Translations under genes and position numbers: made by a program
The notes under the pieces: model-generated
What the model saw: the letters and a program-made list of their open reading frames with translations, nothing else
What the model was told of the DNA's origin: nothing
The model's database searches: none
Origin: an uncultured Rickettsiales bacterium
Lineage (GTDB): Bacteria > Pseudomonadota > Alphaproteobacteria > Rickettsiales > SXRF01
DNA length: 64,000 nt
Reading direction: 5' to 3'
Assembly (NCBI GenBank): GCA_964405685.1
Contig: CAYOOP010000001.1
Span: forward strand, 270,922 to 334,921
Shown here: piece after piece, positions 16,414 to 39,918 of the stretch
Numbering within the stretch: the first letter of the stretch is position 1
Layout: each line of letters starts with the position of its first letter

Positions 16414-16508
16414 GGAGGGGTTAAACCACAGCTTGTGTAAGGGTCCAAGGAGTTTTTGAGTCTTGAATGTTTGCAGAGCCTGTGCGATAGGCTAGAGCCT
16501 CTGATAAT

Positions 16509-16582
16509 GCGGGTGTAGTTCAATGGTAGAACGGCAGCCTTCCAAGCTGCATACGAGGGTTCGATTCCCTTCACCCGCTCCA
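16509..16582 (+). tRNA. tRNA-Gly (anticodon UCC)
   Basis: Acceptor GCGGGTG/CACCCGC, anticodon loop CTTCCAA, T-arm GAGGG-TTCGATT-CCCTT, and T-CCA encoded. Confidence 0.93.
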
Positions 16583-16839: not shown

Positions 16840-17334
16840 ATGTCTGATAATTTGCCGTCATCGCGTCGAGAAATTAGACCTGCGCAAAACGCTCTACAGA
16901 AATCCGAATCTGATTGCGTTAAAAATGCCTCTATTAAATACGACAACACACTCGCTTCTGAGGGTAATAAATATCCTTCAGCGTGCCACAGTTTTGTGTT
17001 TGATATAGAGCTTGATCCAGGGCAGTGGCGCACAATGAATGCTGAACAACGCCAAGCCGTAAGGGATCATTTTGCAAAAATTATATATGAAGATATCCCG
17101 GCTACAGCAATGGAAAATCTAGATATACGTGATTATAACGATTCAAGCAAACCTGCGAAAAGTTTACAACGTAGCTTTTGTAGAGATGCAATTGATTTAG
17201 GTGGCAGACTAGTTTTAAGTGGTAGCGTTATGTTTTTTGATCACCAAGTGACAAATAAAGCAGCATTGCCAGGAGTAATTGGCAGCATCGAAGGAATGGG
17301 TTCTCAAGCACCCTCCCTCCGGTTAGGGTCATAA
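16840..17334 (+). CDS. Hypothetical protein (orphan, in an AT-rich segment)
   Basis: 164-aa ORF preceded by a very AT-rich 140-bp region. I see no recognisable domain. Confidence 0.5.
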   Translation: MSDNLPSSRREIRPAQNALQKSESDCVKNASIKYDNTLASEGNKYPSACHSFVFDIELDPGQWRTMNAEQRQAVRDHFAKIIYEDIPATAMENLDIRDYNDSSKPAKSLQRSFCRDAIDLGGRLVLSGSVMFFDHQVTNKAALPGVIGSIEGMGSQAPSLRLGS

Positions 17335-17395: not shown

Positions 17396-18100
17396 TTAGC
17401 TATTCGCCAACAGATAGAGCCCTATCGCACACGCGTTGGAAACATTCAAGCTTTCCATGCGCGAGGAGATGGGGAATTTGACGAGTTGGTCGCAGCGTTC
17501 AGCGACCAAGCGGCGCAAGCCCTCGCCTTCCGCGCCCATCACAAGCGCGGTGTTACGCTTCAGTTTGGCCTCCTGGAAGGTGGTTTTCGTGTGGCCGTCC
17601 AATCCCACCACCCAATAGCCTTTGTCTTTGAGTTCGAGCAGAGCGTTGGAAATATTGGTGACGTAGACCATGGGCACGATGTCGAGCGCGCCGCTGGCGG
17701 CTTTGGCGAGTACGCCGGATTCTTGCGGGGAGTGGCGTTCTTGGACGATGACACAGGCCACATCAAACGCGGCGGCGGTGCGCAGCATCGCGCCGACATT
17801 GTGGGGATCGGTAACCTGATCGAGCACCAAGATAGGTTTTTCGGACTTGGTGACGACATCATCAAGCGTGAGGGGCTCTAGGTTTTCGACTAGTGCTGCA
17901 ACTCCTTGATGTACAGCATCTTTTCCAACGTATTTTTCAATATCGGTTGGCTTGGCGATTTCGCATTTGAGTTTGCGGGTTTGCGCGAGAGCTTGTAGTT
18001 TGGGAGCCTGCTGATCACTCACCAATACGCGCTTAATGCGCCGCTCGGGGTGATTCAGCGCCGCTTCCACGCTATGAAAACCGTAGAGCCAATAGGTCAT
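17396..18100 (-). CDS. rlmB: 23S rRNA (guanosine-2'-O)-methyltransferase RlmB (TrmH/SpoU family)
   Basis: YGFHSVEAAL N-terminal substrate-binding domain, then LDQVTDPHNVGAMLRTAAAF, LVMGAEGEGLR and ESLNVSNACAI SpoU motifs. Confidence 0.85.
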   Translation of the reverse strand: MTYWLYGFHSVEAALNHPERRIKRVLVSDQQAPKLQALAQTRKLKCEIAKPTDIEKYVGKDAVHQGVAALVENLEPLTLDDVVTKSEKPILVLDQVTDPHNVGAMLRTAAAFDVACVIVQERHSPQESGVLAKAASGALDIVPMVYVTNISNALLELKDKGYWVVGLDGHTKTTFQEAKLKRNTALVMGAEGEGLRRLVAERCDQLVKFPISSRMESLNVSNACAIGLYLLANS

Positions 18101-18269: not shown

Positions 18270-18355
18270 GGTGGAGTGGCCGAGTGGTCAATGGCAGCAG
18301 ACTGTAAATCTGCCCGCGTAAGCGTTCGCTGGTTCAAATCCAGCCTCCACCACCA
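18270..18355 (+). tRNA. tRNA-Tyr (anticodon GUA)
   Basis: Acceptor GGTGGAG/CTCCACC, anticodon loop CTGTAAA, long variable arm, T-arm GCTGG-TTCAAAT-CCAGC, and A-CCA encoded. Confidence 0.93.
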
Positions 18356-18490
18356 TAACTTCGTTAAGCGTATCTATTTGTATTTAAATAATAGATATTG
18401 CTCCTTCAGTTGTAATAAAAGCTTAATTTTTATTATAAATAAGGCTGTGGTAGAATTGAGAGTGAACATCACTCTAACCGTAAAACTTCT

Positions 18491-20491
18491 ATGAGTACCA
18501 TACCCTACGAAGCATTATTGTGTCGCCAAACTCCTGACATTAAAACACGCGCCGTAGCGTTGCGGCAAAAAGTAATTGATGCGGTACAAACAGGCAAAAT
18601 TCCCGTAGTAAGCAATGATAGAAGGATGGAGTTTGAACCCGAACACGACACCATCATCTATCTAGCGCTTCATGAGCCATCATCCTTAAAAGATCATTTA
18701 GCCACCACACGCTCCACTGCGGGTCAGCGTGAAGCATTGGATGCCTTAGAAACAGAATACATCGCCTTACACCAACGTCTCAATAATGCGTGGCCTGAAA
18801 AGAAAGCATTGCTGAAGTTAGAGAAAGAAAGCATCGATTCTACCATTGCGAAATGGTTATCAGCAGAAGAAATTGGAAATAGTGAAGTAGTCAACAAAGC
18901 AGCATTGCACCTTAAACAATACCGTTCTTATAATCCCCCTCATCTTACACACAAGAAGTCTTTTGTAGAAATGATTGCAGAGGGAGAGAGTGTTAAGGCC
19001 CCCTATGAACAAATTATAAAAGATATTCTTGAAGAGTGGTCATGTCCTGGAAAGAGATTTACCCTTAAAAACCTTGCAACACATCTACTCTCAGGCAGCA
19101 CTGAATTATCTCAAAGAGAAATAGAGTTATGGCTTCAAAGCCCGGGTAAGGATGGCAAAATTCGTGACAAAGTAACCGAACAAGTCTGCAACGCGACAGG
19201 TATGAGCAATGAAGATGAGGCTATGTTTTGGCGTGTGGCGCGCGGGAATCCTTCTATCCAGATTGATAGCAATCTATCGGCAACGGAGGTTTATGAACAG
19301 CTCACGAAGAAAATTGGTGCTCCCATCTTTCGTCTCCATCGGATGATAGGATCCTATGAAGATGTTATGCATAATGGAAGCCGTAGCGAAGACAGAATTT
19401 TCCATATGCCTGAAGCGCAAACATTATTGTCTTTTGCGCAACCATCAAAGCCCTGGTTATCACAAACCGCAGATCCTAAACAATGGCGTCAGAATTGGCT
19501 GATTGCGAGAAAACTATCCGGTGACTCACATCCCAAATTATTTGAGGATATGATTATGGATGCCGTTGCTTCGGACAATCCACGCAAGACATTGCTCAAA
19601 AGTATTCTAAATAGATCCGGTATCCATCCCGAGACCACGGAATCATTGCAAGGAAAATGGCAACATGTGAACCCGGACGGGCAATATGGGATAGACCATG
19701 TAAAAGCTCTGCGCGTGGGTCAATCCAGACCACTTACACGTCTAGAAGCGCAAGTGATTGTAGATGGTGCCCGCGAAGCATGCCCAACCTTAAATGCGGC
19801 CGCACAAGAGACGTGTATTGAAATGCTGATGGACTGCCCGCCGCGCGATATTCTTATTGATCGCTACATTCATCAGATAGATGCCAGCGGGCATCCTGCA
19901 AAAGTGCCTCTTAAATCGACGCTTAAAACGATTGCCGACAGTGAGCAAAAAACATTGACGTCAAGAGATCGCAATCAAAGATTTGTGCCAGAAGTGACAG
20001 AAGAATTTCATGATATTCTCACAAAAAATGATAGATTAACGCACGTAGGAGCTCCTTTATTTGCCAATAAATTGGGGCTTGAGGGGCCTCGTCGCAGGAA
20101 ATTTCTAGTGAGAGCAAAAGGCATTGCTGAGCAGGATCCGGAAACGGTTATCGACGATGTGCTTGGTAATAAAATCTCAGCGGCAGCCGGCTTAACCACA
20201 TTGATGGAGCAAACCGGGCATACCCAAACTAGCTTTGCTAAGGTTGCAGGTGAAGATCCACGCACTATTATGAATTGGTGCAAAAAGGGGTTTTCTATGA
20301 AAACGGGACTGGCACAGCATTTAGCAAATGAACTTCACCGCCCTGATCTTGCCGAAAGGATTCAGAAAACGTTTTGTCGTCGCACCAAAATAAATGATTC
20401 TAGCTTTGAACAAGCCCAAACAGAACGGGTGCATCATTTCCAAAATCTTGTTGCAAGTCAGATTGATGCACTGGGTCAAAACAAGCGCTAA
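18491..20491 (+). CDS. Hypothetical 666-aa protein (islet cargo)
   Basis: Long uninterrupted ORF in AT-rich DNA. Contains helix-turn-helix-like stretches (e.g. TQTSFAKVAGEDPRTIMNWCKKG). I cannot assign a family. Confidence 0.7.
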   Translation: MSTIPYEALLCRQTPDIKTRAVALRQKVIDAVQTGKIPVVSNDRRMEFEPEHDTIIYLALHEPSSLKDHLATTRSTAGQREALDALETEYIALHQRLNNAWPEKKALLKLEKESIDSTIAKWLSAEEIGNSEVVNKAALHLKQYRSYNPPHLTHKKSFVEMIAEGESVKAPYEQIIKDILEEWSCPGKRFTLKNLATHLLSGSTELSQREIELWLQSPGKDGKIRDKVTEQVCNATGMSNEDEAMFWRVARGNPSIQIDSNLSATEVYEQLTKKIGAPIFRLHRMIGSYEDVMHNGSRSEDRIFHMPEAQTLLSFAQPSKPWLSQTADPKQWRQNWLIARKLSGDSHPKLFEDMIMDAVASDNPRKTLLKSILNRSGIHPETTESLQGKWQHVNPDGQYGIDHVKALRVGQSRPLTRLEAQVIVDGAREACPTLNAAAQETCIEMLMDCPPRDILIDRYIHQIDASGHPAKVPLKSTLKTIADSEQKTLTSRDRNQRFVPEVTEEFHDILTKNDRLTHVGAPLFANKLGLEGPRRRKFLVRAKGIAEQDPETVIDDVLGNKISAAAGLTTLMEQTGHTQTSFAKVAGEDPRTIMNWCKKGFSMKTGLAQHLANELHRPDLAERIQKTFCRRTKINDSSFEQAQTERVHHFQNLVASQIDALGQNKR

Positions 20492-20510
20492 CCCAAAGAC
20501 TTCCTATAAT

Positions 20511-20542
20511 GTTCGCTGGTTCAAATCCAGCCTCCACCACCA
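20511..20542 (+). repeat. Duplicated tRNA-Tyr 3' fragment (att-like right repeat)
   Basis: Identical to 18324-18355 over 32 bp. The flanking bases differ on both sides. Confidence 0.9.
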
Positions 20543-20619: not shown

Positions 20620-21366
20620 ATGCACAATCTACTTCTCATCATTGAAGATGATATCCTGTTCTATCCGCAGTTTGTGGCACGGCTTATCCAACAGTCGCCG
20701 ATGCCGGTTGTAGGCATTATTATCGCGCGGGCGGCGGCCAAGCATAATCGCTATCGCCATGCGCTTAAAACCATTCGTTATTTTAAAATCGCCGAGCTGT
20801 TGAAGTTGCTGGTGTGGCACGCACGCGCAATGGCATCCGGCAATTCGGTCGCGCATGTAGCGCAAAAGCGGACTATCCCGGCCATCATTGCCAAGGGAAG
20901 CGTGAATACGCCGGAGATCATCGCATGGGTGAAGGAACGTAACCCAGATGTTATTTTTTCGGCGAGTCCGCTGATTGTCGGCACCCAGCTGCTCGCAATG
21001 GCGCCGCTTGCAGTCAATATGCATTTCTCGCTGCTGCCGGCGTATAAGGGCATCATGCCGCTGTTTCATGCGATGGCGCATGAAGAGACCATGGCGGGCA
21101 TTTCGCTGCATGAAATGACGGAGAAAATTGATGAGGGGGCGCTGGTATATCAGCGACCGGTGGCGCTAGACTATAACCGTTCGCTGATGGACAATTACAG
21201 AAATTTTTTCGGCTTGGCAGTGGAGTGTGTTATAGCGTTTTTAAACGATGTTAAAAACGGTAACCGCACGATGCCAACACCTTCCGGACAAGCGCCTTCT
21301 TATTTTCGCCATCCCGATGCCGACGCGTGGAAGCAATTTCGAACCAGGCGTGTGCCGTTTATATGA
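20620..21366 (+). CDS. Stand-alone formyltransferase (Fmt/ArnA N-domain-like)
   Basis: VNMHFSLLPAYKG (N/H of the catalytic triad, SLLP motif) and EKIDEGALVYQ (catalytic Asp region). Has no C-terminal Fmt or dehydrogenase domain. Confidence 0.75.
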   Translation: MHNLLLIIEDDILFYPQFVARLIQQSPMPVVGIIIARAAAKHNRYRHALKTIRYFKIAELLKLLVWHARAMASGNSVAHVAQKRTIPAIIAKGSVNTPEIIAWVKERNPDVIFSASPLIVGTQLLAMAPLAVNMHFSLLPAYKGIMPLFHAMAHEETMAGISLHEMTEKIDEGALVYQRPVALDYNRSLMDNYRNFFGLAVECVIAFLNDVKNGNRTMPTPSGQAPSYFRHPDADAWKQFRTRRVPFI

Positions 21367-22589
21367 TGCTGACCCCTAGGCTTCGGCTGTACACCAAGAA
21401 TATTTCCTACTGGCGCGCAGCGCAAGAATTGTTGGGTGCGGGCAACCCGGCGGCTATTGCGCGCACTGAGAAAATAATTGCCGACCATACCCATGCGCGT
21501 CACGCGGTGCTGACCTCGATGGGGCGAATGGCGATTTACGAAGGCTTGCGGGCGCTTGGTGAAACAGGTGAAATTATTGTTTCGCCGATTACCGTGCCAG
21601 AGGTGATTAGCCTCGTGGTGCTCGCTGGGTTCACACCCGTGTTTTGCGACGTGGCGCCGGGTGCGTGGAATATGGATGTAGAAAAAGTAGAAGCGTTGAT
21701 TACCGATAAAACTGTCGCGATTATGACCACGTATTTTTACGGCAATATGGGTAGTGCAAACGCAGTGCGGGTACTTTGCGATAAGCACGACCTATGGATG
21801 ATTGAAGATGCCGCGCAGGCAATCGGTGCGTGGCAAGATGGCAAGCACGCGGGGACGATTGGCGATTTCGGCATACTCAGTTTTAGCTATCCCAAAAATG
21901 TGACCTCGTTTTATGGTGGTTGCTTGGTAACCAATAGCGATGCAATTGCCGCACGGGTACGTAGTCAAATTGCGAACTATCCGCCGGTGGATAAAACCTG
22001 GCTCGCCAAAAAAGTGATGGGGTGTATTATTAAAGATGTGAGTACATTTTTCCCTGTGTTTCAATTGGTCGGGAGATTGATTCGTTACGGCTATGCCCAC
22101 GACATTCCCGCGATTAAAAAATTGGTGACGCAGGATTTAAATGAAGGCTTTACGCATATACCTCGGACCTATCTCACCCGAATTTCGCCGCAACAGGCAC
22201 AGGCGGTCGCCGATAAATGGCCGGAGGTGGATGAGGATGCTGCGCACCGGATTGCGTGCGCGGACATCTATGCGCGCGTGTTAAAAGATGTGCCGCAAGT
22301 CTTGTGCCCTGCGCTTCCTGGTGATCGTTCGCATACGTTTTTATATTTCCCGGTGCAGGTGCCGGATAAATATGCATTGCAGCATTATTTAATTGCGCAT
22401 TACTGCGACGTGGCTGTGCAACATGCGCAAAACTGCGCAGATCTGGACATCTATACACAATGGAAGCGCGAGTGCCCGAATGCGCGCGCAGCCTATGCGG
22501 GCACGCTGATGCTCCCGACCTATCGCGGGTTTCCGCTGAAGGAAGCGGAGCACTACGCGCAAACCATTCGAAAGTATTTTAACGCATGA
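21363..22589 (+). CDS. DegT/DnrJ/EryC1/StrS-family PLP-dependent sugar aminotransferase
   Basis: IEDAAQAIGA...GDFGILSFSYPKNVTSFYGG carries the family's conserved Lys context. ATGA overlap with the formyltransferase gene (ORF track start 21327). Confidence 0.85.
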   Translation: MMLTPRLRLYTKNISYWRAAQELLGAGNPAAIARTEKIIADHTHARHAVLTSMGRMAIYEGLRALGETGEIIVSPITVPEVISLVVLAGFTPVFCDVAPGAWNMDVEKVEALITDKTVAIMTTYFYGNMGSANAVRVLCDKHDLWMIEDAAQAIGAWQDGKHAGTIGDFGILSFSYPKNVTSFYGGCLVTNSDAIAARVRSQIANYPPVDKTWLAKKVMGCIIKDVSTFFPVFQLVGRLIRYGYAHDIPAIKKLVTQDLNEGFTHIPRTYLTRISPQQAQAVADKWPEVDEDAAHRIACADIYARVLKDVPQVLCPALPGDRSHTFLYFPVQVPDKYALQHYLIAHYCDVAVQHAQNCADLDIYTQWKRECPNARAAYAGTLMLPTYRGFPLKEAEHYAQTIRKYFNA

Positions 22590-24079
22590 CAATTATCATC
22601 GCCGGTTCTGGGCCTGCAGGCGCATTTGCCGCACTCGGTGCGCTCGAGGCGGGTGCGGATGTATTGATGATTGATGCGGGATTGGTGCCGGATGCTGCAG
22701 CGGCAACATTTAAAACGCGGCTCGCGGCAACGCCTTCGCAAGACTGGAGCACTGAGGACCGCGCGGCGCTTATGGGAGGTGCGATTTCAGGCACCAAGGG
22801 ACTCGCGCAAAAACGTCTGTTCGGATCGGATTTTGCAACGCGACCGTTGCAGGATTTTACCGAGCACCATTGCCGGATTATGCCGTCCTATGCGCTCGGT
22901 GGGCTTTCGAATGTGTGGGGTAGAGGTGTTGAGCCACCGTATGATAGAGAAGCCGAGCATTGGCCAGAACATGCAGCGTTTTTAAAATCGCTGCGCACGG
23001 TGCTTATGCACCTGCCCTTTTGCGCCGAGGTGGATAATCTTGCGGAAGTGTTGCCGGTGTTTACCAAGCCAAGCGCACCTCATGCGATTACTGCGGCGGC
23101 ACAAGCCTTGCTGAGCCATTGGAACGCACGGGCCGAGCAGCTGAATACTGATGGCATTCATTTCGGTAAAACGCGGTTGGCGCTCAATACCTCCACGTGC
23201 CAAAAATGCGGGATGTGTTTTTATGGCTGTGCGTATGATGCGATGTGGAGCAGTAGTGAGCTGATTGCGGCGTTGAAAAAACGCTATTCCAATTTCTCCT
23301 ATCGATCGGGCGTGTTGCTGAAGCGCTTTGCAGCAAGTGAGGCAGGTGTCGATGTAACGGTGGAATCTATCACCGAAAAAACGGAAACAACGTGGCAGGC
23401 GGCACGGCTTATTCTTGCTGCTGGCGCGCCGCAAACGACCGCGATTGCCATGCGAAGCTTAAGGATAGAAAAAGCGGTGCTTAAAAATAGCGATCTGATT
23501 CGCATTCCGTTTATCAGCCTGCGGCGTGCGCCGCTTGAGAGCAATTGTCATGCGCTTAGCCCGTTGACGCTCGCGATCAATCGGCGGGCGCTTTCTAAAA
23601 AAGCGATGGTGATGCATCTGTTCGGACAAAACCCAGCGATTGAGAATGCGGTGCTCTCCGCACTTCCGAAATGGGCCCATAGCATGGCGCGGAAATGTGT
23701 GACGCGGTTGTGGGTGGGGATGTGCTTTTTGCATTCCAGTGACTCAGGCAGGATTCTTGTGGAAGAACGTGATGGCACCATGCACTACACCGGACAGCGC
23801 AGAAAACAGGCACGAAACACTTACCTTAAACTGATGCTGTTTCTTGCATTGCGCATGTTTAAAACGGGACTAATACCACTGCCCGTTCCTGGCAGTCTCA
23901 CCCTGCCTGGCAGCTCGGTACACTACGGCGCATCGCTAGCTGTGGATGGGTATGGACGATTACAAGAACATGTTTACGTCGCGGATGCAAGCGGGTTGCC
24001 AGAGATTCCGGCGGGATCGTTTACGCTGTCTATTATGGCGCACGCGCACCGTGTGGGTGCTATGGTTGGCGCGGCTTGA
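22586..24079 (+). CDS. FAD-dependent oxidoreductase, GMC-like
   Basis: N-terminal IIIAGSGPAGAFAA dinucleotide fold, CQKCGMCFYGCAYDAMW motif and C-terminal VYVADASGLPEIPAGSFTLSIMAHAHRVG. This resembles the GMC oxidoreductase layout. Confidence 0.65.
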   Translation: MTIIIAGSGPAGAFAALGALEAGADVLMIDAGLVPDAAAATFKTRLAATPSQDWSTEDRAALMGGAISGTKGLAQKRLFGSDFATRPLQDFTEHHCRIMPSYALGGLSNVWGRGVEPPYDREAEHWPEHAAFLKSLRTVLMHLPFCAEVDNLAEVLPVFTKPSAPHAITAAAQALLSHWNARAEQLNTDGIHFGKTRLALNTSTCQKCGMCFYGCAYDAMWSSSELIAALKKRYSNFSYRSGVLLKRFAASEAGVDVTVESITEKTETTWQAARLILAAGAPQTTAIAMRSLRIEKAVLKNSDLIRIPFISLRRAPLESNCHALSPLTLAINRRALSKKAMVMHLFGQNPAIENAVLSALPKWAHSMARKCVTRLWVGMCFLHSSDSGRILVEERDGTMHYTGQRRKQARNTYLKLMLFLALRMFKTGLIPLPVPGSLTLPGSSVHYGASLAVDGYGRLQEHVYVADASGLPEIPAGSFTLSIMAHAHRVGAMVGAA

Positions 24080-24998
24080 GGTTGGGATTGTTTTGCATAT
24101 CGACCGTCAGGAAGAAAATCAAAAACTGAATTGCAAGAATAAGGCTGAGTGCGGAGAGCATGACCGTTCCGGAGGCACGCGCATGGCCGGTTGCAAGGGT
24201 AGCCATCCAGTTGATCGAACCATAAATGGTACCCAGCGTTCCCAGTACAAAGGCGAGCACTAGTGCTAGGGAACCTGCATTGAAATCGCGTACGAAATAG
24301 GTGTAGATAATCCGTTTGAAGGTATTGCAACTATGCTTACGCAGGAAACGCCAAATTTCGCGCAGCGGTTTTAAATTGCTTTTTTCATCGGCGTATTTAG
24401 CACGCATCGGAAATTCACGCACCACCGCACCCAGCAGATAAAGTTTGCACAGCATATCGGATTCGAAGAAATAGCGGTTGTCGATTTCGGCAAGATCCAG
24501 ATCTTCGAGCATGGGGCGCGAGATCGCCACGAATCCATTGGTCGGATCCATCAGATCCCAATAGCCGGAAGAGAGTTTGGTGAAAAATGAGAGCACGCCG
24601 TTACCCACCAAACGCGCCCAAGGCATGCCTTTTAAATAGCGCAAATAATAGAAGCGGTTGCCTTTGACGTAATCCGCACGGCCTTCGGCAATGGGTTTGA
24701 TTAATTCAAAAACTTGGTGCGTGGGCATCTGCCCGTCACCATCGATTTTAACAAAAATATCAGCATCGCTATGGGTGAGTGCATAGGCAAAACCAGCCTT
24801 CACAGCACCGCCGACGCCGAGGTTTTGCGGGTTGGTGAGCACGGTGACGTTGGGGAGATTTAGCTGTTCAATGAATGACCCGCTGGCTTCGGGGCAAGCG
24901 TCATCCACGCAAATAATAGCGACGTCAGGAAGGCTTTCCAATACATCCTTGATTTTGGATTTTACCTTATAGCACGGAATGATAGCGGCGATTTTCAT
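24060..24998 (-). CDS. Family 2 glycosyltransferase with C-terminal TM helices (ArnC/GtrB/DPM1-like polyprenyl-phosphate glycosyltransferase)
   Basis: KIAAIIPCYKV start, VDDACPE, KIDGDGQM (DxD) and two C-terminal TM helices. Size and architecture match ArnC-type enzymes. Confidence 0.82.
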   Translation of the reverse strand: MKIAAIIPCYKVKSKIKDVLESLPDVAIICVDDACPEASGSFIEQLNLPNVTVLTNPQNLGVGGAVKAGFAYALTHSDADIFVKIDGDGQMPTHQVFELIKPIAEGRADYVKGNRFYYLRYLKGMPWARLVGNGVLSFFTKLSSGYWDLMDPTNGFVAISRPMLEDLDLAEIDNRYFFESDMLCKLYLLGAVVREFPMRAKYADEKSNLKPLREIWRFLRKHSCNTFKRIIYTYFVRDFNAGSLALVLAFVLGTLGTIYGSINWMATLATGHARASGTVMLSALSLILAIQFLIFFLTVDMQNNPNLKPRQP

Positions 24999-25004
24999 AG
25001 GCGT

Positions 25005-27107
25005 TTAAAACCCCATATAGCTACGGCACGAGGGGAAATTGCGATCGATAAACCAACGCACAGCTTGACCGGATTGTACGAGACACAAGCCTGTAGTAGT
25101 GTTTTTGTCTTGGATAAAGTAAAGTGTCTCACTCCCGCGCGCAGCGGTTTGAACGTCGTAGTTATTCCCCAACGTTTTAACCCAAGGCACAATCGCCTCA
25201 CCCGGATAGTAGCGCCGCAACTCTGCGCCTCCTTTTACCGGATGGTGGGGCATGCCCATGTAAAAGGCTGAGGGCACCACATTGCCAAATGTGCCATAGG
25301 TTCTGCCCATGGGGGTAAATTCGCCTTGGGGCGAGGGCACGGGCAACAACCAGAAATCATTGTGCCAATTGATGGATTTAGAATAGGTTTTCGGAAGCGC
25401 GATGACGTTGGTGGCATTTTCCATGAGTTCATTTTTGGCCCATACATCCACAGCCGGAATAGCACGCAGCAGGGTATAAAAGGACATCAGATCATTGAAG
25501 TAGATGTTGACCCTGCCCTCTTTCAATTGATGCAGCTTGGGCACGACATCTTTTGCCATATGCGTTAGGCGATCGCCGCGGAAGATGTATTGCGGAATAT
25601 GATCGGCCAGGGTGATGAAGATAAAACAAGGCGGTAGCAGCAGTAACCAGGCAATCGCGCGTTGGATGCGGATATGATAGCGTTCGATTGCCTCCAGGGT
25701 GATGAGGAATGCTGGTAACAGCATTACTACGCCGATCATGAAATAGCGGCCAGTGCCCGACCAGAACATGAGCTTGACGCTGTAGACTGCCGTTGAAATT
25801 AAAAACAATGCCCAACATGCGGCTGCCAGGGGTTTGGATTTCGGGCGCGCTAAGAAAAGAGCGGCGAAGGCTACAATCGGAATCAATCCAAATTGCGAAT
25901 TTTCGCGCGTGAGGGAGAAAGGCATGAAGTATTCGATCAGCGCTGTGGAATCAAACACGCAACGCGAGGGCATTAAATCAATGCCGTTTCCAGGAATGTA
26001 CGAGGTGACGTGCAGGCGCAAAAAGGTGATGTAGTTGCGGATGCCGTCAATACCGAGCTCAAACAAGCGCAGATAAAAATGCGCCGCCGCGCAGCCCATA
26101 TCGCCATGCGATTTGTGATAGGCAGCAAGGCGTTTCATTTGCCCGTCAAAGGTAATGCCGTGGTTGGCGTTGGTGAGTTGGTCAGGTAGCAATGCTAGCA
26201 AGATGATCGGCACTAAGGCCACGAGCGCCAAGCCGATGACACGCGGGTGGAACCATTGCACCAAGCGTTCTTTGCCGCCAAAATAAAGAAGTAACATGAG
26301 TAGGGCACCGGGTAAAAAGATGCCGGTGGTTAGTTTGACCGAAACGGCAATGGCGCTGCATAGCAGTAAGAAAAATATCGCCCGGAAATCTAGCGGTTTG
26401 ACGATTAGCCACACGGCGGCGCGGGTGACGAGAAATAGTGTCAGTGCCTCTTCGTGGCCGCCGAGGCCGGAAAATAAAAATTGTGGTGCGGCGATGAATA
26501 GCGTGACCCAGAATAGGTGTTTGAGGGTGCGTTCGCGGCCAAACAAAAGCCAAAGATTGAGTAAGGAGGCAACCACCAGCACGGCGTTGATAATAGCATA
26601 AAAGATGGGGATTAGGTGCAGGGCGTGGATGGCGGTAAACACAACATAGTACACCGATGGGAAAAAATACATGACCGACAGGCTATCGACGTGCGAGGTT
26701 TCCCAGGCGGAGCCGGTTTTGGTGGCAAACACCATGCGGGCAAGTTTGACGCGTTGTTCATCCGCCGAATCGGGCGACATGAAACAAGCAAGCAGCACGA
26801 GACCGAGGACAATACCACCGATGGCGTAGTAATAAAACCGCGGGCCTTCGGCAGGGGCTTGGGTGGTGGGAGCGATGCGTGGGACACCGATTAAATGAAT
26901 GAACACGATGGTTGAGGCAGCAAAGCACCCGGCATAAAGCATGGGTGAGCCTAGTAGGCCGTAAAACGACAGCAGCATGGTAGTAAGAAACGCACCAAAA
27001 ATAGCGCTTTCGGCACCGCCGGTGATTGGCTCCGCGGCTCGGCACAGCCAATTTACGAAACGTTTGAGAATAGAAAACATGGCGGGACTTTGGCGTAAAT
27101 ACCCCAA
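25005..27107 (-). CDS. Large polytopic membrane protein with a roughly 200-aa C-terminal soluble domain (possible GT-C-fold glycosyltransferase)
   Basis: 700-aa ORF. More than 12 predicted hydrophobic helices over the first roughly 480 aa, then a soluble tail. Lies directly upstream of the GT2 gene and co-oriented with it. The function call is inferred from architecture only. Confidence 0.55.
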   Translation of the reverse strand: MGYLRQSPAMFSILKRFVNWLCRAAEPITGGAESAIFGAFLTTMLLSFYGLLGSPMLYAGCFAASTIVFIHLIGVPRIAPTTQAPAEGPRFYYYAIGGIVLGLVLLACFMSPDSADEQRVKLARMVFATKTGSAWETSHVDSLSVMYFFPSVYYVVFTAIHALHLIPIFYAIINAVLVVASLLNLWLLFGRERTLKHLFWVTLFIAAPQFLFSGLGGHEEALTLFLVTRAAVWLIVKPLDFRAIFFLLLCSAIAVSVKLTTGIFLPGALLMLLLYFGGKERLVQWFHPRVIGLALVALVPIILLALLPDQLTNANHGITFDGQMKRLAAYHKSHGDMGCAAAHFYLRLFELGIDGIRNYITFLRLHVTSYIPGNGIDLMPSRCVFDSTALIEYFMPFSLTRENSQFGLIPIVAFAALFLARPKSKPLAAACWALFLISTAVYSVKLMFWSGTGRYFMIGVVMLLPAFLITLEAIERYHIRIQRAIAWLLLLPPCFIFITLADHIPQYIFRGDRLTHMAKDVVPKLHQLKEGRVNIYFNDLMSFYTLLRAIPAVDVWAKNELMENATNVIALPKTYSKSINWHNDFWLLPVPSPQGEFTPMGRTYGTFGNVVPSAFYMGMPHHPVKGGAELRRYYPGEAIVPWVKTLGNNYDVQTAARGSETLYFIQDKNTTTGLCLVQSGQAVRWFIDRNFPSCRSYMGF

Positions 27108-27122
27108 AATAGCAACCAGGAT

Positions 27123-28781
27123 ATGCGAGACTTCGCACTTGGAAATGCGCTTTTTATCAGTATGCTGGCCCCCATGTTACTGGATGCTGTTTTCTTTCCT
27201 GTTTTCTTGGGTTGTGCCTATGTGCTGGGCATCGGGGCACTGCGCCTTTTTCCTGGAGATAGGGTGACGGAGCCGCTTTATCTCCCGTTTGTGGTTGCGT
27301 TTTTGACGTTGGGAAGCGTTGCCTTGGGTGTTAATTTTTTCACCGGTGTCGATTCGCTGGTGTATTATGAAATCATGGGCGCAATTGGTTTGGGGGGGAT
27401 TTTACAATTCCGAAAAACAGATTGGCAGCGCTTGTGGCCCCTGTTGCCATTTAGTCTTTTGTTGGTGCCACTCGCAGCCCAAATGCCAGCGGGTGCGGAT
27501 GCGGGATTGTACCATATTCCGCACCAGGTGTTAATTCGGGATGAGAAAATTATTTTTGGTCTCGCCAATCTTCATAGCCGTTATGGGTTTTCCTCCATGA
27601 TGGAATATGTGCTAGCGCCGCTATGGATTGGGGAGCAATTCAAGCTACTGTCCTATGCCCACGCTGCTTTTGTGGCGGCGTGGTTGTTGTTTTTGTGGGA
27701 GTGGATTTCGTCCTCCCAAAAAACAATCGCCGCGCTCGGATGGCTGACGCTGATTTCCATGCTGTGCTACTGTATGTATTTCGATTTTGGCTATACTTCG
27801 ACCGATACGCCGTCTGGCATTATGTTCGCCATCGCATTTTTAAATGGTGTCGCCCTGCTGCTGGGCGAAGGGCCCGTTAGCAGGCGGCAGCTTTTAGTGT
27901 TTTTTCTTTGCGCCGTGTTCGCATACACCTGCAAACTCAGCAACATCACCGTGGTGCTTTGGGCGGGATTTGTAGTGGCGAAACTGCTGCATCAGCGACG
28001 CATCGCTTGGAAGCCCTTGATGCAAGCTGCTGCTTTGCCTACGCTACTTATGAGTATGTGGTTGATGAAGAACTTTATTGTCAGCGGTTGCCTGCTTTAT
28101 CCAAGTGCGGGTACGTGTTTGGATGTGTCGTGGGCGGCGAAAGCGAATGCAATTGAAAATGCCAACGGCATCACCGCCTGGGCGCGCCACCCGCAGGATG
28201 ATTTGCGGCCACTGCACAGTTGGAATTGGTTGTGGGAGTGGTGGTGGCCGAACCAACGCGTCTTTTTAGTGTTTATGGCCGCCACCTTTACCGCCGTTGC
28301 GAGTGGCTACTGGGTGTTTTGCAAAACCGAGAAACATCACCGCCGCGATGTGATGTTGCCTGCCTTGGTCATCACCCTTCTGGGATTAGCGCTCTGGTTT
28401 TTCAAGGCACCAACCCCGCGGTTTGGGATTGGTGTGTTTATCATAGTGGTGCCGGTGGTGGTGGTAACGTTGTTTGGATTCCGTTGGACAGCGCACACGT
28501 GGCTGCTCAAGCTGCGGCTTGTTGTTCTGCTATTACTTGCGGCACGGCTTGGAATGATGGCAAATACGCATGTCATTCGCCATCTCAATTTAAATACAGA
28601 CATCGATATGATGCCGGCACCGATGGTGGAAGTAAAACTCGACAAAAACTTCGGATTCCGCCCGGCAGGCAACACACCGGGGGCGGATTGCATTTGTTGG
28701 ACCGTGCATTATTGCGCACCTGATGCACGCCCCCCCATCAGCGAAGCGCACGGTTATAAATTCTTCAAGCAGCCATTATAG
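27123..28781 (+). CDS. Large polytopic membrane protein (possible glycan polymerase, ligase or GT-C)
   Basis: 552-aa ORF, hydrophobic throughout, with a periplasmic-looking loop LYHIPHQVLIRDEKIIFGLANLHSRYGFSS. No confident family assignment. Confidence 0.5.
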   Translation: MRDFALGNALFISMLAPMLLDAVFFPVFLGCAYVLGIGALRLFPGDRVTEPLYLPFVVAFLTLGSVALGVNFFTGVDSLVYYEIMGAIGLGGILQFRKTDWQRLWPLLPFSLLLVPLAAQMPAGADAGLYHIPHQVLIRDEKIIFGLANLHSRYGFSSMMEYVLAPLWIGEQFKLLSYAHAAFVAAWLLFLWEWISSSQKTIAALGWLTLISMLCYCMYFDFGYTSTDTPSGIMFAIAFLNGVALLLGEGPVSRRQLLVFFLCAVFAYTCKLSNITVVLWAGFVVAKLLHQRRIAWKPLMQAAALPTLLMSMWLMKNFIVSGCLLYPSAGTCLDVSWAAKANAIENANGITAWARHPQDDLRPLHSWNWLWEWWWPNQRVFLVFMAATFTAVASGYWVFCKTEKHHRRDVMLPALVITLLGLALWFFKAPTPRFGIGVFIIVVPVVVVTLFGFRWTAHTWLLKLRLVVLLLLAARLGMMANTHVIRHLNLNTDIDMMPAPMVEVKLDKNFGFRPAGNTPGADCICWTVHYCAPDARPPISEAHGYKFFKQPL

Positions 28782-28811: not shown

Positions 28812-30062
28812 TTAGAGTTCGACTTTTTGACCTTTTTTACGTTCGGAATCAGACTTAAGCTGCCCGCAGGCTGCAAAAATATCCCGCCCGCGGGGGGTGC
28901 GGATCGGGGAAATATAGCCTGCTTTGTAGATGATTTCGGCGAAGGCGTTGATGCGCGCATCGTCCGAGCATTCGTAGTCCGAGCCGGGCCATGGGTTGAA
29001 AGGAATGAGGTTTACTTTCGCATGGACGCCTTTGAGTAGACGGACCAATTCCTTAGCGTCCGCATCGGTGTCGTTTACGCCTTTAAGCATCACATATTCA
29101 AAGGTAATGCGGCGGGCGTTGGTGGCACCGGGGTATTTTTTGCAGGCTTCGAGCAATTCTTCTATCGGGTATTTTTTATTGAGCGGCACCAGCACGTTCC
29201 GCAAATCATCGCGCACGGCGTGGAGCGAAATGGCGAGGTTGACGCCGAGCTCGGTGCCGACGCGCTCAATCATCGGCACGACGCCGGAGGTCGAAAGGGT
29301 GATGCGGCGTTTGGACATGGCGATGCCGTCGGTATCCATGATAATGCGCAGTGCTTTGGCCACATTGTCGTAGTTAAACAGTGGCTCGCCCATGCCCATC
29401 AGGACGATGTTTGTGAACCTTGCGTTGCTCCCAGCGACTTCTTCTGAAGTCGCTATGGAGCGCGGCTCAGGGCTGGCGCGGTCTGCTGACCGCGCATAAC
29501 GCGGCCATTCTTTGAGGCCATCGCGCGCGACGAGGACTTGCGAAACAATCTCGCCGGGTTTGAGGTTGCGCACCAGCGGCATGGTGCCGGTGTGGCAGAA
29601 AGAACATGAGAGGGTGCAGCCGACTTGTGATGATATGCACAGCGCGCCTCGTTCCGTTTCCGGAATGAATACGGATTCGACTTTGTTGCCGTCGGGAAAT
29701 CCGAGCAACCATTTGCGCGTGCCATCGACCGAGGTGAGATCCCGCACGGACTCGGGCCGAGAAATCGTGAAATGTTCTTCCAGCAAGGGGCGCTTGGTTT
29801 TGGCGATGTTGGTCATCTCATCGAAGCTCGTCGCCCCGCGCGCATAGATCCAGTTCCACACCTGCTTGGCGCGGTATGGTTCCAAGCCAACGCTGGTCAG
29901 CGCCACCGTCAATTCTTCCAGCGTCAAACCAACCAATGAGGGCTTGGAACTGGGCGCGGCCAAGGGTACCTGCGGCGTTTTGGTAATCACACCATCATAG
30001 GTAGTAAGTGCCGCCGGATAATGGTGCACCTCGGCTTCGTTATGAATGGTTTCCGGTTCCAT
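28812..30062 (-). CDS. rlmN: Dual-specificity 23S rRNA/tRNA adenine-C2 methyltransferase RlmN (radical SAM), carrying an in-frame repeat insertion
   Basis: [11 protein letters not shown], radical-SAM CxxxCxxC (GCTLSCSFC), [13 protein letters not shown] and C-terminal ACGQL. I chose internal ATG 30062 because the longer ORF overlaps the upstream gene. Confidence 0.9.
29421..29501 (-). repeat. 81-bp hairpin-rich repeat element, in-frame copy 2 (inside rlmN)
   Basis: Its reverse complement aligns ungapped with 2507-2587 (57/81). Hairpins are GCGCGGTC-AGCA-GACCGCGC and GCGACTTC-AGAA-GAAGTCGC. It encodes [27 protein letters not shown]. Confidence 0.7.
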
Positions 30063-30492
30063 GGAATTGATACCCAAAAGCCGTGGTTCTAATGTATTCT
30101 GGCTCCCCCGGCAAGGTTTTAAGCTTGGCACGAAGGCGGTGAATGTGGGTTTCGAGCGTGTGGGTGTCGATATCGTCAGCATAACCCCACACGGTTTTAA
30201 GCAGGGTTTCGCGTGGCACTTCCGTGTCGGCATCCAGCAGGGTTTTCAGCAATAAGGCTTCTTTTTCAGTCAGTTCGATCGAAATTTCTCCGCACGTCAC
30301 GCTTTTTTTTGCGCTGTCAAAAAAAATGCCGGGGGCGAGGGGCACGCTCTCGCTCTTCAGCTTTTTAAGTAGATCCCGCAGAGGGATAGGCCCGTTTTCA
30401 AACAGGCTTTCTGGAACAGCGGCGTCTATCCCAAAGGGCTCTAATACTTCTACAATGGCGGTATTAAAACGTGGGTCGGTTGCGCTTGACAT
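30040..30492 (-). CDS. Winged-helix (OmpR/PhoB C-terminal type) DNA-binding protein lacking a receiver domain
   Basis: [13 protein letters not shown]....[33 protein letters not shown]...[11 protein letters not shown] is a Trans_reg_C-like domain. The N-terminal 60 aa is too short for a receiver. Confidence 0.7.
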
Positions 30493-38970: not shown

Positions 38971-39918
38971 ATGCTTTATCAGTCCTTCATTGCGCTTGCC
39001 GCCTTTCTGATTACCTTGCTTGGAACGCGGGTAATTGTCCTTAGACTGCGTGAGAAATCACCCACCCAATTCTTGCCCTCAGCTCCACGCAGCAGCGGTA
39101 TTGCGATTATGGTAGCGCTCGCAGCCTATATGATTGCAACCGACGCGAGCTATGCTCTTATTCTCAGTATGGCCGTGCTCGGCGGCCTTGCTTTTTTGGG
39201 AGAGTGGGTGGCGGTACCGCCTGTCGTTCGGCTGCTGACACAATTATTGGTGATCGCCTGTATTGTATATGCCGAACAGTTCTCGCTGGGCGTTTCCTGG
39301 TTGCCGGCGTGGGTAGACACGGTCTTGATTCTACTGGGATGGACCTGGTTTGTTAATCTATATGAAACCATGGACGGCATTGACGGCATGGCAACCACCG
39401 AGGCTATTTGCGTGACGATTGGCATTTGCTTAGTGCTCGCCATGACTGAAAATGCCAGCGAGCCTCTCTTCATCCACAGTCTGATTATTGCGGCAGCCGC
39501 CAGTGGTTTTTTGTGGTGGAATTGGTACCCAGCGAAAATCCGTTTGGGGGCGGTAGGTAGTACGTCATTTAGCTTGGTGGTGGGTTATGCGCTTCTGTCG
39601 CTGGTCAATCAAGGATACGGTATTTCTGCGTTTATTCTAGCGAGTTATTTTCTGATGGAATCGCTATTTACGAACCTTAAACCCTTACTCAAAGATTTGG
39701 AATACGAACATTACTACCGGCTTGCCGCGCGTGCGGGGACATCGCATGGCGTGATTGTTCGGCATGTGTTTGGGGCCAATATCATGTTGATTGCCCTGGC
39801 GATATTTGCAGCACTTTACCCTGCCCTTGCTGTTTATACCTTGCTAGCTGCCATTTTAATGGTCGGCATCGTCCTGCTCTTTTTTGAACGTCTCTACCAT
39901 CGGCGAAGCGGCGCATGA
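38971..39918 (+). CDS. Family 4 glycosyltransferase (WecA/WbpL/MraY-like polyprenyl-phosphate sugar-1-phosphate transferase)
   Basis: Polytopic protein with the NLYETMDGIDGMA motif (the N..N.mDG.DGla signature). Confidence 0.8.
   Translation: MLYQSFIALAAFLITLLGTRVIVLRLREKSPTQFLPSAPRSSGIAIMVALAAYMIATDASYALILSMAVLGGLAFLGEWVAVPPVVRLLTQLLVIACIVYAEQFSLGVSWLPAWVDTVLILLGWTWFVNLYETMDGIDGMATTEAICVTIGICLVLAMTENASEPLFIHSLIIAAAASGFLWWNWYPAKIRLGAVGSTSFSLVVGYALLSLVNQGYGISAFILASYFLMESLFTNLKPLLKDLEYEHYYRLAARAGTSHGVIVRHVFGANIMLIALAIFAALYPALAVYTLLAAILMVGIVLLFFERLYHRRSGA

Follow-up and report, generated by a model that had tools for sequence, protein, structure and literature searches.

A six-gene cluster predicted to decorate the envelope of an uncultured Rickettsiales bacterium with an N-formyl amino sugar

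Organization of the gene cluster

A cluster of six genes is located at positions 20620-28781 within a 64,000-nucleotide stretch of DNA from an uncultured Rickettsiales bacterium (contig CAYOOP010000001.1 of assembly GCA_964405685.1), hereafter called the window. The first three genes are on the plus strand and code for an N-formyltransferase (248 amino acids (aa), 20620-21366; PF00551 Formyl_trans_N, E 1.7e-14), a pyridoxal-phosphate (PLP)-dependent aminotransferase of the DegT/DnrJ/EryC1 family, referred to as DegT (408 aa, 21363-22589; PF01041 DegT_DnrJ_EryC1, E 1.7e-53), and a flavin adenine dinucleotide (FAD) flavoprotein of the GMC superfamily (497 aa, 22586-24079; weak FAD/GMC matches in Pfam, assigned by a family profile). 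The minus strand carries a GT2 glycosyltransferase (312 aa, 24060-24998; PF00535 Glycos_transf_2, E 1.1e-18) and a polytopic membrane protein of 691 aa (25005-27080; no Pfam or NCBIfam family). The sixth gene, again on the plus strand, codes for a polytopic membrane protein of 552 aa belonging to the DUF8201/LIC_10190 family (27123-28781; NF047510, E 1.9e-37, above the cut-off). The most interesting element of this cluster appears to be the flavoprotein, a member of a widely distributed, uncharacterised iron-sulfur (Fe-S) family whose sequences and gene contexts point to a role in polyprenyl-phosphate glycosylation, the carbonyl sugars that it makes being passed on either to an aminotransferase or to a reductase.

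The six open reading frames (ORFs) had been listed in a preliminary description of the same DNA, and all of them are real, in agreement with the ORF map. Its observations were confirmed, and its interpretation, that a formylated or aminated sugar is built on a polyprenyl-phosphate carrier for periplasmic transfer, was supported. Two of the gene starts were revised. The longest ORF of DegT starts from GTG at 21327 on the plus strand (420 aa), but the start is most likely ATG at 21363, the same call being made in an identical contig and the homologue alignments being in agreement. The ORF of the large membrane protein extends to TTG at 27107, giving the 700 aa described before; this ORF is real, but the gene call of the identical contig and the homologue alignment make ATG at 27080, and thus a protein of 691 aa, the most likely start.

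With the revised DegT start, both junctions within the first three genes are ATGA stop/start overlaps, at 21363-21366 (formyltransferase/DegT) and 22586-22589 (DegT/flavoprotein), so the overlapping codons noted earlier hold true. The flavoprotein and GT2 genes are convergent with a 20-nt overlap, and the GT2 gene is separated from that for the 691-aa protein by 6 nt. Between the divergent genes for the 691-aa and 552-aa proteins there are 42 nt (27081-27122), or 15 nt if the longest ORFs are used. The real start of the 552-aa protein may be near 27174, as judged from the homologue alignment and the low N-terminal pLDDT (predicted local distance difference test) of its model; whichever starts hold, the promoters of this gene pair must overlap coding sequence. 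Since the intergenic gaps are just 6-77 nt, the cluster has no room for an additional gene. The proposed division into three transcription units fits strand and spacing, but it gained nothing from promoter and terminator scans of the cluster, which gave no signal above chance.

A divergent Fe-S flavoprotein family

Relatives of the flavoprotein were collected by a family scan with one genome per species of GTDB, giving at least 385 relatives, for which 80 loci were fetched; neighbour genes were annotated in 83 loci by phmmer with the window proteins and the proteins of reference loci. The relatives come from Verrucomicrobiota, Solirubrobacterales, Melainabacteria, Acidobacteriota, Alphaproteobacteria and others, the nearest being found in two metagenome-assembled genomes (MAGs) named "Alphaproteobacteria bacterium" (53% and 50% identity).

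The flavoprotein had been called GMC-like, a statement that is clear at the level of the family profile but not for the window protein taken alone against Pfam (scores are given below with the other points of doubt). Among 34 family members, GMC_oxred_N was matched in 24 (best 7.4e-9) and GMC_oxred_C in 29 (best 3.3e-7) at E <= 0.01. The best match of the family profile among solved structures was the alpha subunit of the Burkholderia cepacia FAD-glucose dehydrogenase (6A2U/8HDD, E 5.9e-13); also matched were pyranose oxidases, cellobiose dehydrogenase, HMF oxidase, 6'''-hydroxyparomomycin C oxidase (7DVE, E 6e-6) and fructose dehydrogenase (2.5e-5). These matches to solved GMC enzymes span the N-terminal, middle and C-terminal segments.

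In the alignment of the 34 homologues, C205, C211, C215, H446 and the GxGxxG motif are invariant, and C208 is present in at least 90% of the sequences, together forming a CxxCxxCxxxC motif. By the family-profile alignment, C205, C211 and C215 correspond to Cys212, Cys218 and Cys222 of 6A2U, which ligate a 3Fe-4S cluster in the B. cepacia enzyme (PMC6719666). An Fe-S cluster is predicted on this basis in the flavoprotein as well. H446 is aligned with the His of "NHITGS" in 6A2U, and about 40 residues beyond it the consensus Asn at position 486 is replaced by His in the window protein (MA[N/H]AHR). H446 and position 486 would be the catalytic pair of the GMC family. By inspection, the N-terminus is the GxGxxG FAD fold itself; there is no signal peptide, and a transmembrane (TM) helix is also absent. 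Taken together, the sequence features place the flavoprotein, as a divergent member short of the Pfam threshold, in the superfamily of GMC sugar dehydrogenases, with a cytoplasmic location and a predicted Fe-S cluster. It is predicted to act as a sugar-hydroxyl dehydrogenase making a keto or aldehyde intermediate for the aminotransferase. Literature searches for GMC or FAD enzymes connected with polyprenyl or undecaprenyl carriers and aminotransferases gave no paper on this family.

Formyltransferase and aminotransferase

The closest solved relative of the formyltransferase is the formyltransferase domain of ArnA (E 2e-15 in a search of the PDB), and other sugar N-formyltransferases come next. 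The identity to E. coli ArnA is 34% over 143 aa, the match being confined to residues 43-185 of the N-domain. N133, H135 and D171 are aligned with the ArnA triad N102, H104 and D140, and the C-terminal subdomain is lacking. This enzyme is predicted to N-formylate the new amino group.

DegT is similar to sugar aminotransferases (perosamine synthetase, scyllo-inosose aminotransferases and ArnB) over the N-terminal 200 residues only. The lysine of its SFSYPK motif is aligned with K188 of ArnB, the Schiff-base lysine, which is thus kept. The C-terminal half includes an insertion of about 55 aa (residues ~205-260), hydrophobic and amphipathic by inspection (KTWLAKKVMGCIIKDVSTFFPVFQLVGRLIRYGY...), which is common to every flavoprotein-coupled DegT collected (loci L002, L003, L007, L014, L085, L086, L090 and L091) and is not present in ArnB. 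These DegTs also share a conserved N-terminal motif, "TPRLRLYTKN". The insertion may be a membrane-binding or partner-binding element.

Gene pairs and gene sets in related loci

Two types of partner gene were recognized for the flavoprotein. An extended short-chain dehydrogenase/reductase (SDR) gene is located directly after the flavoprotein gene, often overlapping, in 53 of the 83 loci (L008-L084, e.g. L018:9992-13622 and L004:10001-13654). In nine loci from several phyla, the window included, a DegT gene is located directly before the flavoprotein gene and overlaps it; the DegT-coupled loci are the window, L002, L003, L006, L007, L014, L085 and L086, plus L090 and L091 from look-ups. In a neighbour-joining tree, the DegT-coupled flavoproteins are all on one side of the midpoint root. 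The flavoprotein family thus has two habits, one clade going with a reductase and one with an aminotransferase. Pairing with SDR or DegT is expected if the flavoprotein makes a carbonyl, which is then either reduced (net epimerisation) or transaminated. The combination of flavoprotein and SDR looks like a two-enzyme "oxidise then reduce" sugar epimerase, not yet characterised.

All the DegT-coupled loci include an N-acyl or N-formyl transferase, and all except L007 include GT2 and/or a large polytopic protein (PMT_2, DUF2142, DUF8201 or the family of the 691-aa protein). The neighbours are GT2, a methyltransferase, a homologue of the 691-aa protein, a second GT2 with DUF8201, a hexapeptide transferase and an Acyl_transf_3 protein in L002; a hexapeptide transferase, DUF2142, a methyltransferase and GT2 in L003; PMT_2, an EamA protein and a hexapeptide transferase in L085; and PMT_2, GT2 and GNAT in L014. 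In L086, a GT2-DegT-flavoprotein operon faces a convergent PMT_2 gene, and a methyltransferase, an acetyltransferase and a Polysacc_deac_1 protein are also coded.

Around the SDR-coupled flavoproteins, GT2 outnumbers every other family by far, with 18 of the 128 neighbours in 32 loci. One SDR-type locus belongs to a cultivable bacterium, Granulicella aggregans M8UP14. The GT2s sampled from these loci best match AglJ, Dol-P-hexose transferase and PpgS, and several of them are followed by polytopic proteins of about 630 aa without a Pfam family. In the Solirubrobacterales loci, the flavoprotein and SDR genes are beside a pair of PpgS-like GT2 and DUF2304 genes and two large polytopic proteins without significant Pfam match. 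The PpgS-like GT2 plus DUF2304 pair echoes the mycobacterial PpgS/Rv3632 arrangement.

The complete gene set is also found elsewhere. Locus L090, from a different metagenome and about 60% identical, shows the same six-gene arrangement between other flanks, tRNA-Gly and zapA. In the MAG GCA_021733565.1 the set is split, one contig (L089) carrying DUF8201, a homologue of the 691-aa protein, GT2 and tRNA-Lys, and another (L091) carrying Acyl_transf_3/SGNH, formyltransferase, DegT and flavoprotein. This split indicates that the cluster consists of two modules, one for transfer and one for tailoring, which co-occur even when unlinked; the six-gene cluster is a fusion of the two. The expectation, raised with the preliminary description, that the genes should be co-conserved in other genomes was thereby borne out.

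The GT2 enzyme and the two membrane proteins

The GT2 protein has two TM helices, both C-terminal (239-263 and 275-302). Its best NCBIfam matches are PpgS (polyprenyl-phospho-GalNAc synthase, 4e-17) and AglJ (1.7e-14), and Dol-P-hexose transferase is also matched, with all scores below the equivalog cut-offs. The only sequence match in the PDB is the Dol-P-Man synthase (DPMS) of P. furiosus, 5MLZ; the identity to ArnC is 26% over 117 residues. The earlier designation as ArnC-like agrees with the TM pair and with these matches, and from both the protein is predicted to be a polyprenyl-phosphate sugar synthase of the ArnC/GtrB/DPMS type.

The 691-aa protein belongs to an extremely rare family, with 5 matches among 5.8 billion proteins in a word-indexed search and 11 matches among 1.84 billion representatives in an exhaustive phmmer search. 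A scan of metagenome contigs for further relatives gave nothing beyond the contig already known. Two distant homologues, P0127 and P0128, pass the gathering score of Pfam PMT_2, the ArnT/PMT-type GT-C family, and are matched by the hidden Markov model of the core family at 6e-48 and 8e-42, respectively. P0127 corresponds, by length and Pfam match, to the 787-aa PMT_2 gene directly upstream of the DegT-flavoprotein pair in L085. The 691-aa protein is laid out as a block of TM helices and a C-terminal domain of about 190 aa with beta strands, predicted to be periplasmic, and the family has an invariant D107 in "SPDSADEQR" and an invariant K249. This architecture fits ArnT-like enzymes.

The 552-aa protein was assigned to PF26626 DUF8201 by a precomputed match; a member of DUF8201 is also coded in the genome of the cultivable Roseibium album. 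Its invariant D126 is within "GADAGLYH", and the Cys residues at C323/C332 and C525/C531, nearly invariant in the family, would suit periplasmic loops closed by disulfide bonds. When the two families were compared with each other by hhalign, a weak match was obtained (E 1e-4, 58% probability), placing D126 on D107 and K271 on K249. Against a small ArnT/PMT_2 alignment, the probabilities for either membrane-protein family were 0.6% and 3.6%, which is not significant, although motifs appeared in the expected register (DAGLYH against DETRY, plus the conserved Lys). Searches of both families, with sequences and profiles, against all PDB sequences gave nothing meaningful. Literature searches on DUF8201/LIC_10190 gave nothing relevant, nor was a paper describing the family of the 691-aa protein found.

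A GT-C fold had been expected for the large membrane proteins. For the 691-aa protein this is reasonably supported through the PMT_2-scoring homologues, making it a probable GT-C member, and the protein is predicted to be a periplasmic transferase of a lipid-linked sugar. For the 552-aa protein the indications are suggestive only; membership of GT-C is merely plausible here, and the protein is predicted to be a second periplasmic transferase.

Proposed pathway and alternative explanations

On balance we favour the reading that the cluster specifies a two-module, polyprenyl-phosphate-dependent glycosylation of the periplasmic "three-component" type (Gtr/Arn), which would decorate an envelope acceptor with an N-formyl amino sugar. 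In this scheme a DprE1-like oxidation by the flavoprotein would stand in for the dehydrogenase or decarboxylase step on a nucleotide sugar, for which an NAD-dependent enzyme is usual. From the gene order, domain families, catalytic residues, Fe-S motif, conserved pairings and conserved gene set observed above, we infer the following order of steps. Within the transfer module (GT2, the 691-aa PMT_2-related protein and the 552-aa DUF8201 protein), GT2 would work at the cytoplasmic face, charging polyprenyl phosphate with a sugar taken from a nucleotide donor. Within the tailoring module (formyltransferase, DegT and flavoprotein, translationally coupled), the FAD/Fe-S dehydrogenase of GMC type would oxidise one hydroxyl of the sugar to a keto or aldehyde group, the electrons leaving via its Fe-S cluster for an acceptor that is either soluble or in the membrane; DegT would transaminate the carbonyl, and the formyltransferase would cap the amine, pulling transamination forward as ArnA does. 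Tailoring may take place at the membrane once the sugar is lipid-linked, the flavoprotein then having a DprE1-like role. After flipping, by a presumed flippase, the sugar would be handed by the two polytopic proteins to a periplasmic acceptor, or to two of them. As judged from the absence of a decarboxylase, it is probably a hexose and not a pentose, and as no deformylase was found in the window, the transferred sugar may keep the formyl group, or a deformylase lies elsewhere.

Several observations weigh against this reading. The window flavoprotein stays below both Pfam cut-offs (19.7 against 23 bits for GMC_oxred_N, 17.1 against 24.6 bits for GMC_oxred_C). A flippase of the GtrA, ArnE/F or EamA type is absent from the cluster, and an ArnE/F homologue is absent from the whole window, no GtrA-specific search having been made outside the cluster. 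In locus L007, DegT, flavoprotein and GNAT are inside a Wzx-type polysaccharide cluster with no obvious GT-C protein, a context that fits tailoring of nucleotide sugars or of undecaprenyl-diphosphate-linked sugars as well as that of undecaprenyl-phosphate-linked monosaccharides. A WbpM/PglF-like 4,6-dehydratase coded 11 kb downstream could supply a 4-keto sugar independently of the flavoprotein. Direct tests of the 691-aa protein against GT-C were negative (no Pfam family, no PDB-profile match, no significant hhalign alignment to ArnT), and its AlphaFold2 (AF2) model, made from five sequences, is poor (pLDDT 54); ArnT (5EZM) stands on top of the Foldseek matches of this model, but at a non-significant E of 0.6, and given the quality of the model this is not evidence. 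The AF2 model of the 552-aa protein is confident (pLDDT 92.8), yet no significant Foldseek match was obtained; those with a probability above 0.25 are all GT-C enzymes, EmbB, Pmt4, Pmt1/2 and STT3 (TM-score 0.24-0.35).

Oxidation at the lipid-linked level is a tentative part of the proposal, which we hold at somewhat below an even chance. It is favoured by four considerations. Known sugar enzymes of the GMC family, every solved match included, act on free sugars or glycosides and not on nucleotide sugars; a separate oxidase and reductase are needless for nucleotide sugars, yet are exactly the way of DprE1/DprE2; a surface Fe-S relay suits the delivery of electrons to a membrane acceptor, as in glucose dehydrogenase; and the coupled DegTs have the conserved hydrophobic insertion.

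The strongest alternative, which we regard as unlikely but deserving of serious consideration, is tailoring at the level of the nucleotide sugar as in the Arn pathway, with GT2 then loading the finished formamido sugar onto undecaprenyl phosphate like ArnC. The flavoprotein would then oxidise a UDP- or other nucleoside-diphosphate (NDP)-sugar, or the keto sugar would be provided by an NAD-dependent enzyme elsewhere, for instance the dehydratase at 39915-41771. It is in agreement with this alternative that the solved relatives of DegT act on soluble substrates, mostly NDP-sugars, that the nearest solved relatives of the formyltransferase (ArnA and other sugar N-formyltransferases) act on NDP-sugars, that the Polysacc_synt_2 4,6-dehydratase is accompanied by a GT4 initiating transferase at 38971-41771, and that Wzx-type clusters such as that of L007 are normally fed with NDP-sugars. 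We know, however, of no GMC-family enzyme that uses a nucleotide sugar, the substrates of the solved relatives being those named above. Epimerisation or reduction of an NDP-sugar needs no separate flavin oxidase, yet more than half of the family loci show the pairing with SDR. The ATGA overlap of DegT and flavoprotein, kept in several phyla, speaks for the flavoprotein as the source of the DegT substrate, and the hydrophobic insertion of the coupled DegTs sets them apart from ArnB.

Much less probable is an origin of the six genes as part of an O-antigen or capsule pathway of the Wzx/Wzy type, in which the 552-aa and/or 691-aa protein would be a polymerase or ligase (Wzy/WaaL-like) and GT2 an ordinary repeat-unit enzyme. 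Both membrane proteins do have many TM helices and conserved residues in periplasmic loops (His and Arg in DUF8201), as in ligases and polymerases, neither gave a significant structural match to GT-C, and the tailoring pair of L007 lies inside a Wzx-type cluster. The six genes, however, include no Wzx, no chain-length regulator and no initiating phosphoglycosyl transferase, and none could be fitted in; no Pfam or NCBIfam match to Wzy_C or O-antigen ligase was found among the cluster proteins. The C-terminal TM pair of GT2 and its best matches to polyprenyl-phosphate synthases, the homology of the 691-aa family to PMT_2-scoring proteins, and the GT-C identity of all Foldseek matches of appreciable probability also stand against a Wzx/Wzy fragment. 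Finally, it is hardly credible that the flavoprotein works outside the sugar pathway, as a redox enzyme on a lipid, polyol or quinone with the DegT adjacency being without functional meaning: it is below the threshold of every Pfam flavoprotein family and the literature searches were silent on its family, but overlapping DegT-flavoprotein pairs recur in nine loci of several phyla, with their flavoproteins together on a single side of the tree, all of the best profile matches are to sugar oxidoreductases, and the sister clade is coupled to sugar-type extended SDRs and GT2s.

When amino sugars are added to lipid A, glycans or proteins in the periplasm, this controls the charge of the cell surface, the resistance to polymyxin and cationic peptides, and recognition by phages and the immune system. 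To our knowledge, the keto intermediate of such sugars arises in all characterised routes at the nucleotide-sugar level, through an NAD(P)-dependent enzyme. A broader claim, possible but more doubtful than not, is that the flavoprotein founds a widespread family of membrane-associated GMC/Fe-S dehydrogenases that oxidise polyprenyl-phosphate-linked sugars, a non-homologous functional analogue of DprE1. If this is true, the flavoprotein together with SDR would epimerise a lipid-linked sugar, whereas its combination with the special DegT subfamily would lead to amination. The lipid carrier itself would then be the site where amino and formamido sugars are made, and a keto intermediate at the nucleotide-sugar level would not be needed. 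Envelope amino sugars would thereby have a new biosynthetic route, and GT-C enzymes a new set of donors. Should the enzyme work on lipid-linked sugars, chemistry of the DprE1/DprE2 style would extend well beyond mycobacteria, a large orphan family would gain a function, and new lipid-linked donors would be predicted for the orphan GT-C-like families DUF8201, DUF2142 and that of the 691-aa protein. Read conservatively, the cluster still represents a clear variant of the Arn and Gtr systems, one that is open to testing and has so far not been annotated.

The tRNA-Tyr islet and flanking genes

Upstream of the cluster is tRNA-Tyr (GTA; 18270-18355, plus strand, detected with ARAGORN), the 3' end of which is the attachment site of a neighbouring islet (18356-20542, plus strand) outside the cluster. 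The islet contains one orphan ORF of 666 aa (18491-20491) and is bounded by a repeat of the tRNA 3' end. The att-like repeat reported near 20542 was confirmed as an exact 32-nt direct copy, at 18324-18355 and 20511-20542. Two matches of this repeat occurred in 0 of 100 shuffles, and a third copy was not found with up to 3 mismatches allowed. The 2.2-kb islet has a GC content of 0.434 and a GC content at third codon positions (GC3) of 0.388, and is clearly foreign. Its ORF belongs to no Pfam, NCBIfam or PADLOC family, the sole match being a weak C-terminal one to the PHROG "transcriptional regulator" (E 0.005); its identification as a recognizable phage or defence gene was rejected after these family searches. 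No integrase was detected with Pfam and NCBIfam among the ORFs scanned in 17.4-31.5 kb, islet included.

The cluster begins 77 nt past the downstream repeat copy and had been suspected of being accessory itself. Its GC content is 0.520, compared with 0.522 for the window, and its GC3 of 0.55-0.61 is within the housekeeping range. The possibility of its being a part of the tRNA-Tyr islet was rejected, since the repeats do not enclose it and the islet has another base composition; of the marks of a genomic island (flanking repeats, integrase and deviant composition) it shows none, the repeats bounding the islet only. The suspicion is nevertheless supported in part, by indirect signs of mobility. 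In four genomes the cluster or its modules adjoin tRNA genes, which are tRNA-Tyr, tRNA-Gly, tRNA-Lys and, accompanied by an integrase, tRNA-Phe; the family is very patchy, and the flanks differ among genomes. The cluster is probably an old, well-ameliorated accessory module.

Three observations were made on the flanking genes. Farther upstream, a 30-nt inverted repeat (16462-16491 and 17421-17450; 87% complementary, arms 929 nt apart) flanks tRNA-Gly (16509-16582) and an ORF (16840-17334), the right arm being within the 3' end of rlmB. Directly downstream of the cluster, the longest ORF of rlmN (28812-30233) codes for 473 aa, compared with 416 aa called in the identical contig; the profile matches begin near residue 97, and the N-terminal extension is probably not translated. 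Between mutL and purH, a Glycos_transf_4 gene (38971-39918; WecA/WbpL-like initiating transferase) overlaps a Polysacc_synt_2 gene (39915-41771) coding for 618 aa, a protein with no exact match on record. The two genes form a separate envelope-glycan locus; the 618-aa protein is like the UDP-GlcNAc 4,6-dehydratases WbpM, PglF and CapD, and the locus could be a source of 4-keto sugar for a DegT enzyme.

Comparison with known systems

The Arn pathway (PmrHFIJKLM) of E. coli and Salmonella is alike in possessing a DegT aminotransferase, an ArnA-N-like formyltransferase and a polyprenyl-phosphate-loading GT2, together with a large polytopic transferase, to which the 691-aa protein is distantly and indirectly related through the PMT_2/ArnT superfamily. 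The proposed logic is also alike, formylation coming after transamination and a lipid-linked donor being used in the periplasm. The parallels with ArnA-N, ArnB and ArnC drawn in the preliminary description are upheld by the Asn-His-Asp triad of the formyltransferase, the Schiff-base lysine of DegT, and the TM pair and polyprenyl-phosphate matches of GT2. Equally correct was the statement that the ArnA decarboxylase domain, ArnD and ArnE/F are missing: when all window ORFs of at least 50 aa were searched by phmmer with the E. coli Arn proteins, only the counterparts of ArnA-N, ArnB and ArnC were matched, and there was no match at E <= 0.01 for the ArnA decarboxylase domain, ArnD, ArnT or ArnE/F in the 64 kb. 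An SDR gene was likewise absent from the cluster in a Pfam scan. The shared proteins are matched at the family level only, with BLASTP identities of 34-39% to ArnA-N, 31% to ArnB and 26% to ArnC over partial lengths, and NCBIfam equivalog scores of 70.4 against a cut-off of 777 for ArnA and 88 against 631 for ArnB; no ArnC model was among the GT2 matches. The cluster is therefore not a member of the Arn pathway, and a bona fide arn operon was rejected since its defining components are missing. Nothing identifies lipid A as the acceptor of the cluster's sugar. The cluster further differs in having two different polytopic proteins, and in the predicted source of its keto intermediate, a GMC-type dehydrogenase with FAD and Fe-S. 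Such different chemistry for the keto intermediate had been anticipated, and it is the best-supported part of the earlier interpretation, given the DegT-flavoprotein overlap in nine loci and the relation of the flavoprotein to Fe-S sugar dehydrogenases.

The second system for comparison is DprE1/DprE2. The flavoprotein is unlike DprE1 in matching GMC enzymes and having an Fe-S motif. Neither the window protein nor any of the 34 homologues matches FAD_binding_4, the family of DprE1 (VAO type); all matches are of the GMC or two-dinucleotide-binding type, and homology to DprE1 was rejected because the fold family is different. In the mycobacterial system, a flavin oxidase and a separate reductase act on a polyprenyl-phospho-sugar as decaprenyl-phospho-ribose 2'-epimerase, DprE1 handing electrons to a quinone or O2 and the product feeding GT-C transferases (PMC11841060). 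The 53 pairs of flavoprotein and SDR mirror DprE1 and DprE2, a likeness that is functional only. In the window, the second enzyme is an aminotransferase and not a reductase, and the lipid-linked substrate is a proposal.

Direct-electron-transfer FAD dehydrogenases have a multihaem cytochrome c subunit as partner, and the free sugars that they oxidise serve respiration. Two of them, the alpha subunit of the B. cepacia FAD-glucose dehydrogenase and the large subunit of fructose dehydrogenase, are the best solved relatives of the flavoprotein, with the Cys-rich loop at the same position. These enzymes are periplasmic and are exported together with a hitch-hiker subunit (PMC6719666). In contrast, the flavoprotein lacks a signal peptide, no gene for a hitch-hiker or cytochrome c is in or beside the cluster, the fourth Cys gives a ferredoxin-like 4Fe-4S motif, and the gene is translationally coupled to that of a biosynthetic aminotransferase.

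In aminoglycoside synthesis, 6'-oxidases of the NeoQ/LivQ type are GMC enzymes with glycosides, not nucleotide sugars, as substrates; they oxidise a hydroxyl, and the resulting carbonyl is then aminated by a PLP aminotransferase. We regard this combination as presumably the nearest chemical precedent for the flavoprotein-DegT pair, the related oxidase 7DVE being among the profile matches; a literature search for the NeoQ/NeoB precedent found nothing. The aminoglycoside oxidases differ in acting on soluble pseudo-oligosaccharides, in lacking an Fe-S motif and in having no link to a polyprenyl-phosphate GT2 or to GT-C.

The three-component systems (GtrA/GtrB/GtrC and PpgS-Rv3632-Rv3779) resemble the cluster in combining a GT2 carrying C-terminal TM helices with dedicated polytopic transferases. 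Related loci of the flavoprotein use DUF2142 or PMT_2 proteins, and one of them has an EamA protein; the papers mentioning DUF2142 appear to deal with loci for streptococcal and lactococcal cell-wall polysaccharide (rgp/CWPS). Compared with these systems, the cluster adds a formamido-sugar module of its own and two non-orthologous polytopic proteins, one of them from a very rare family.

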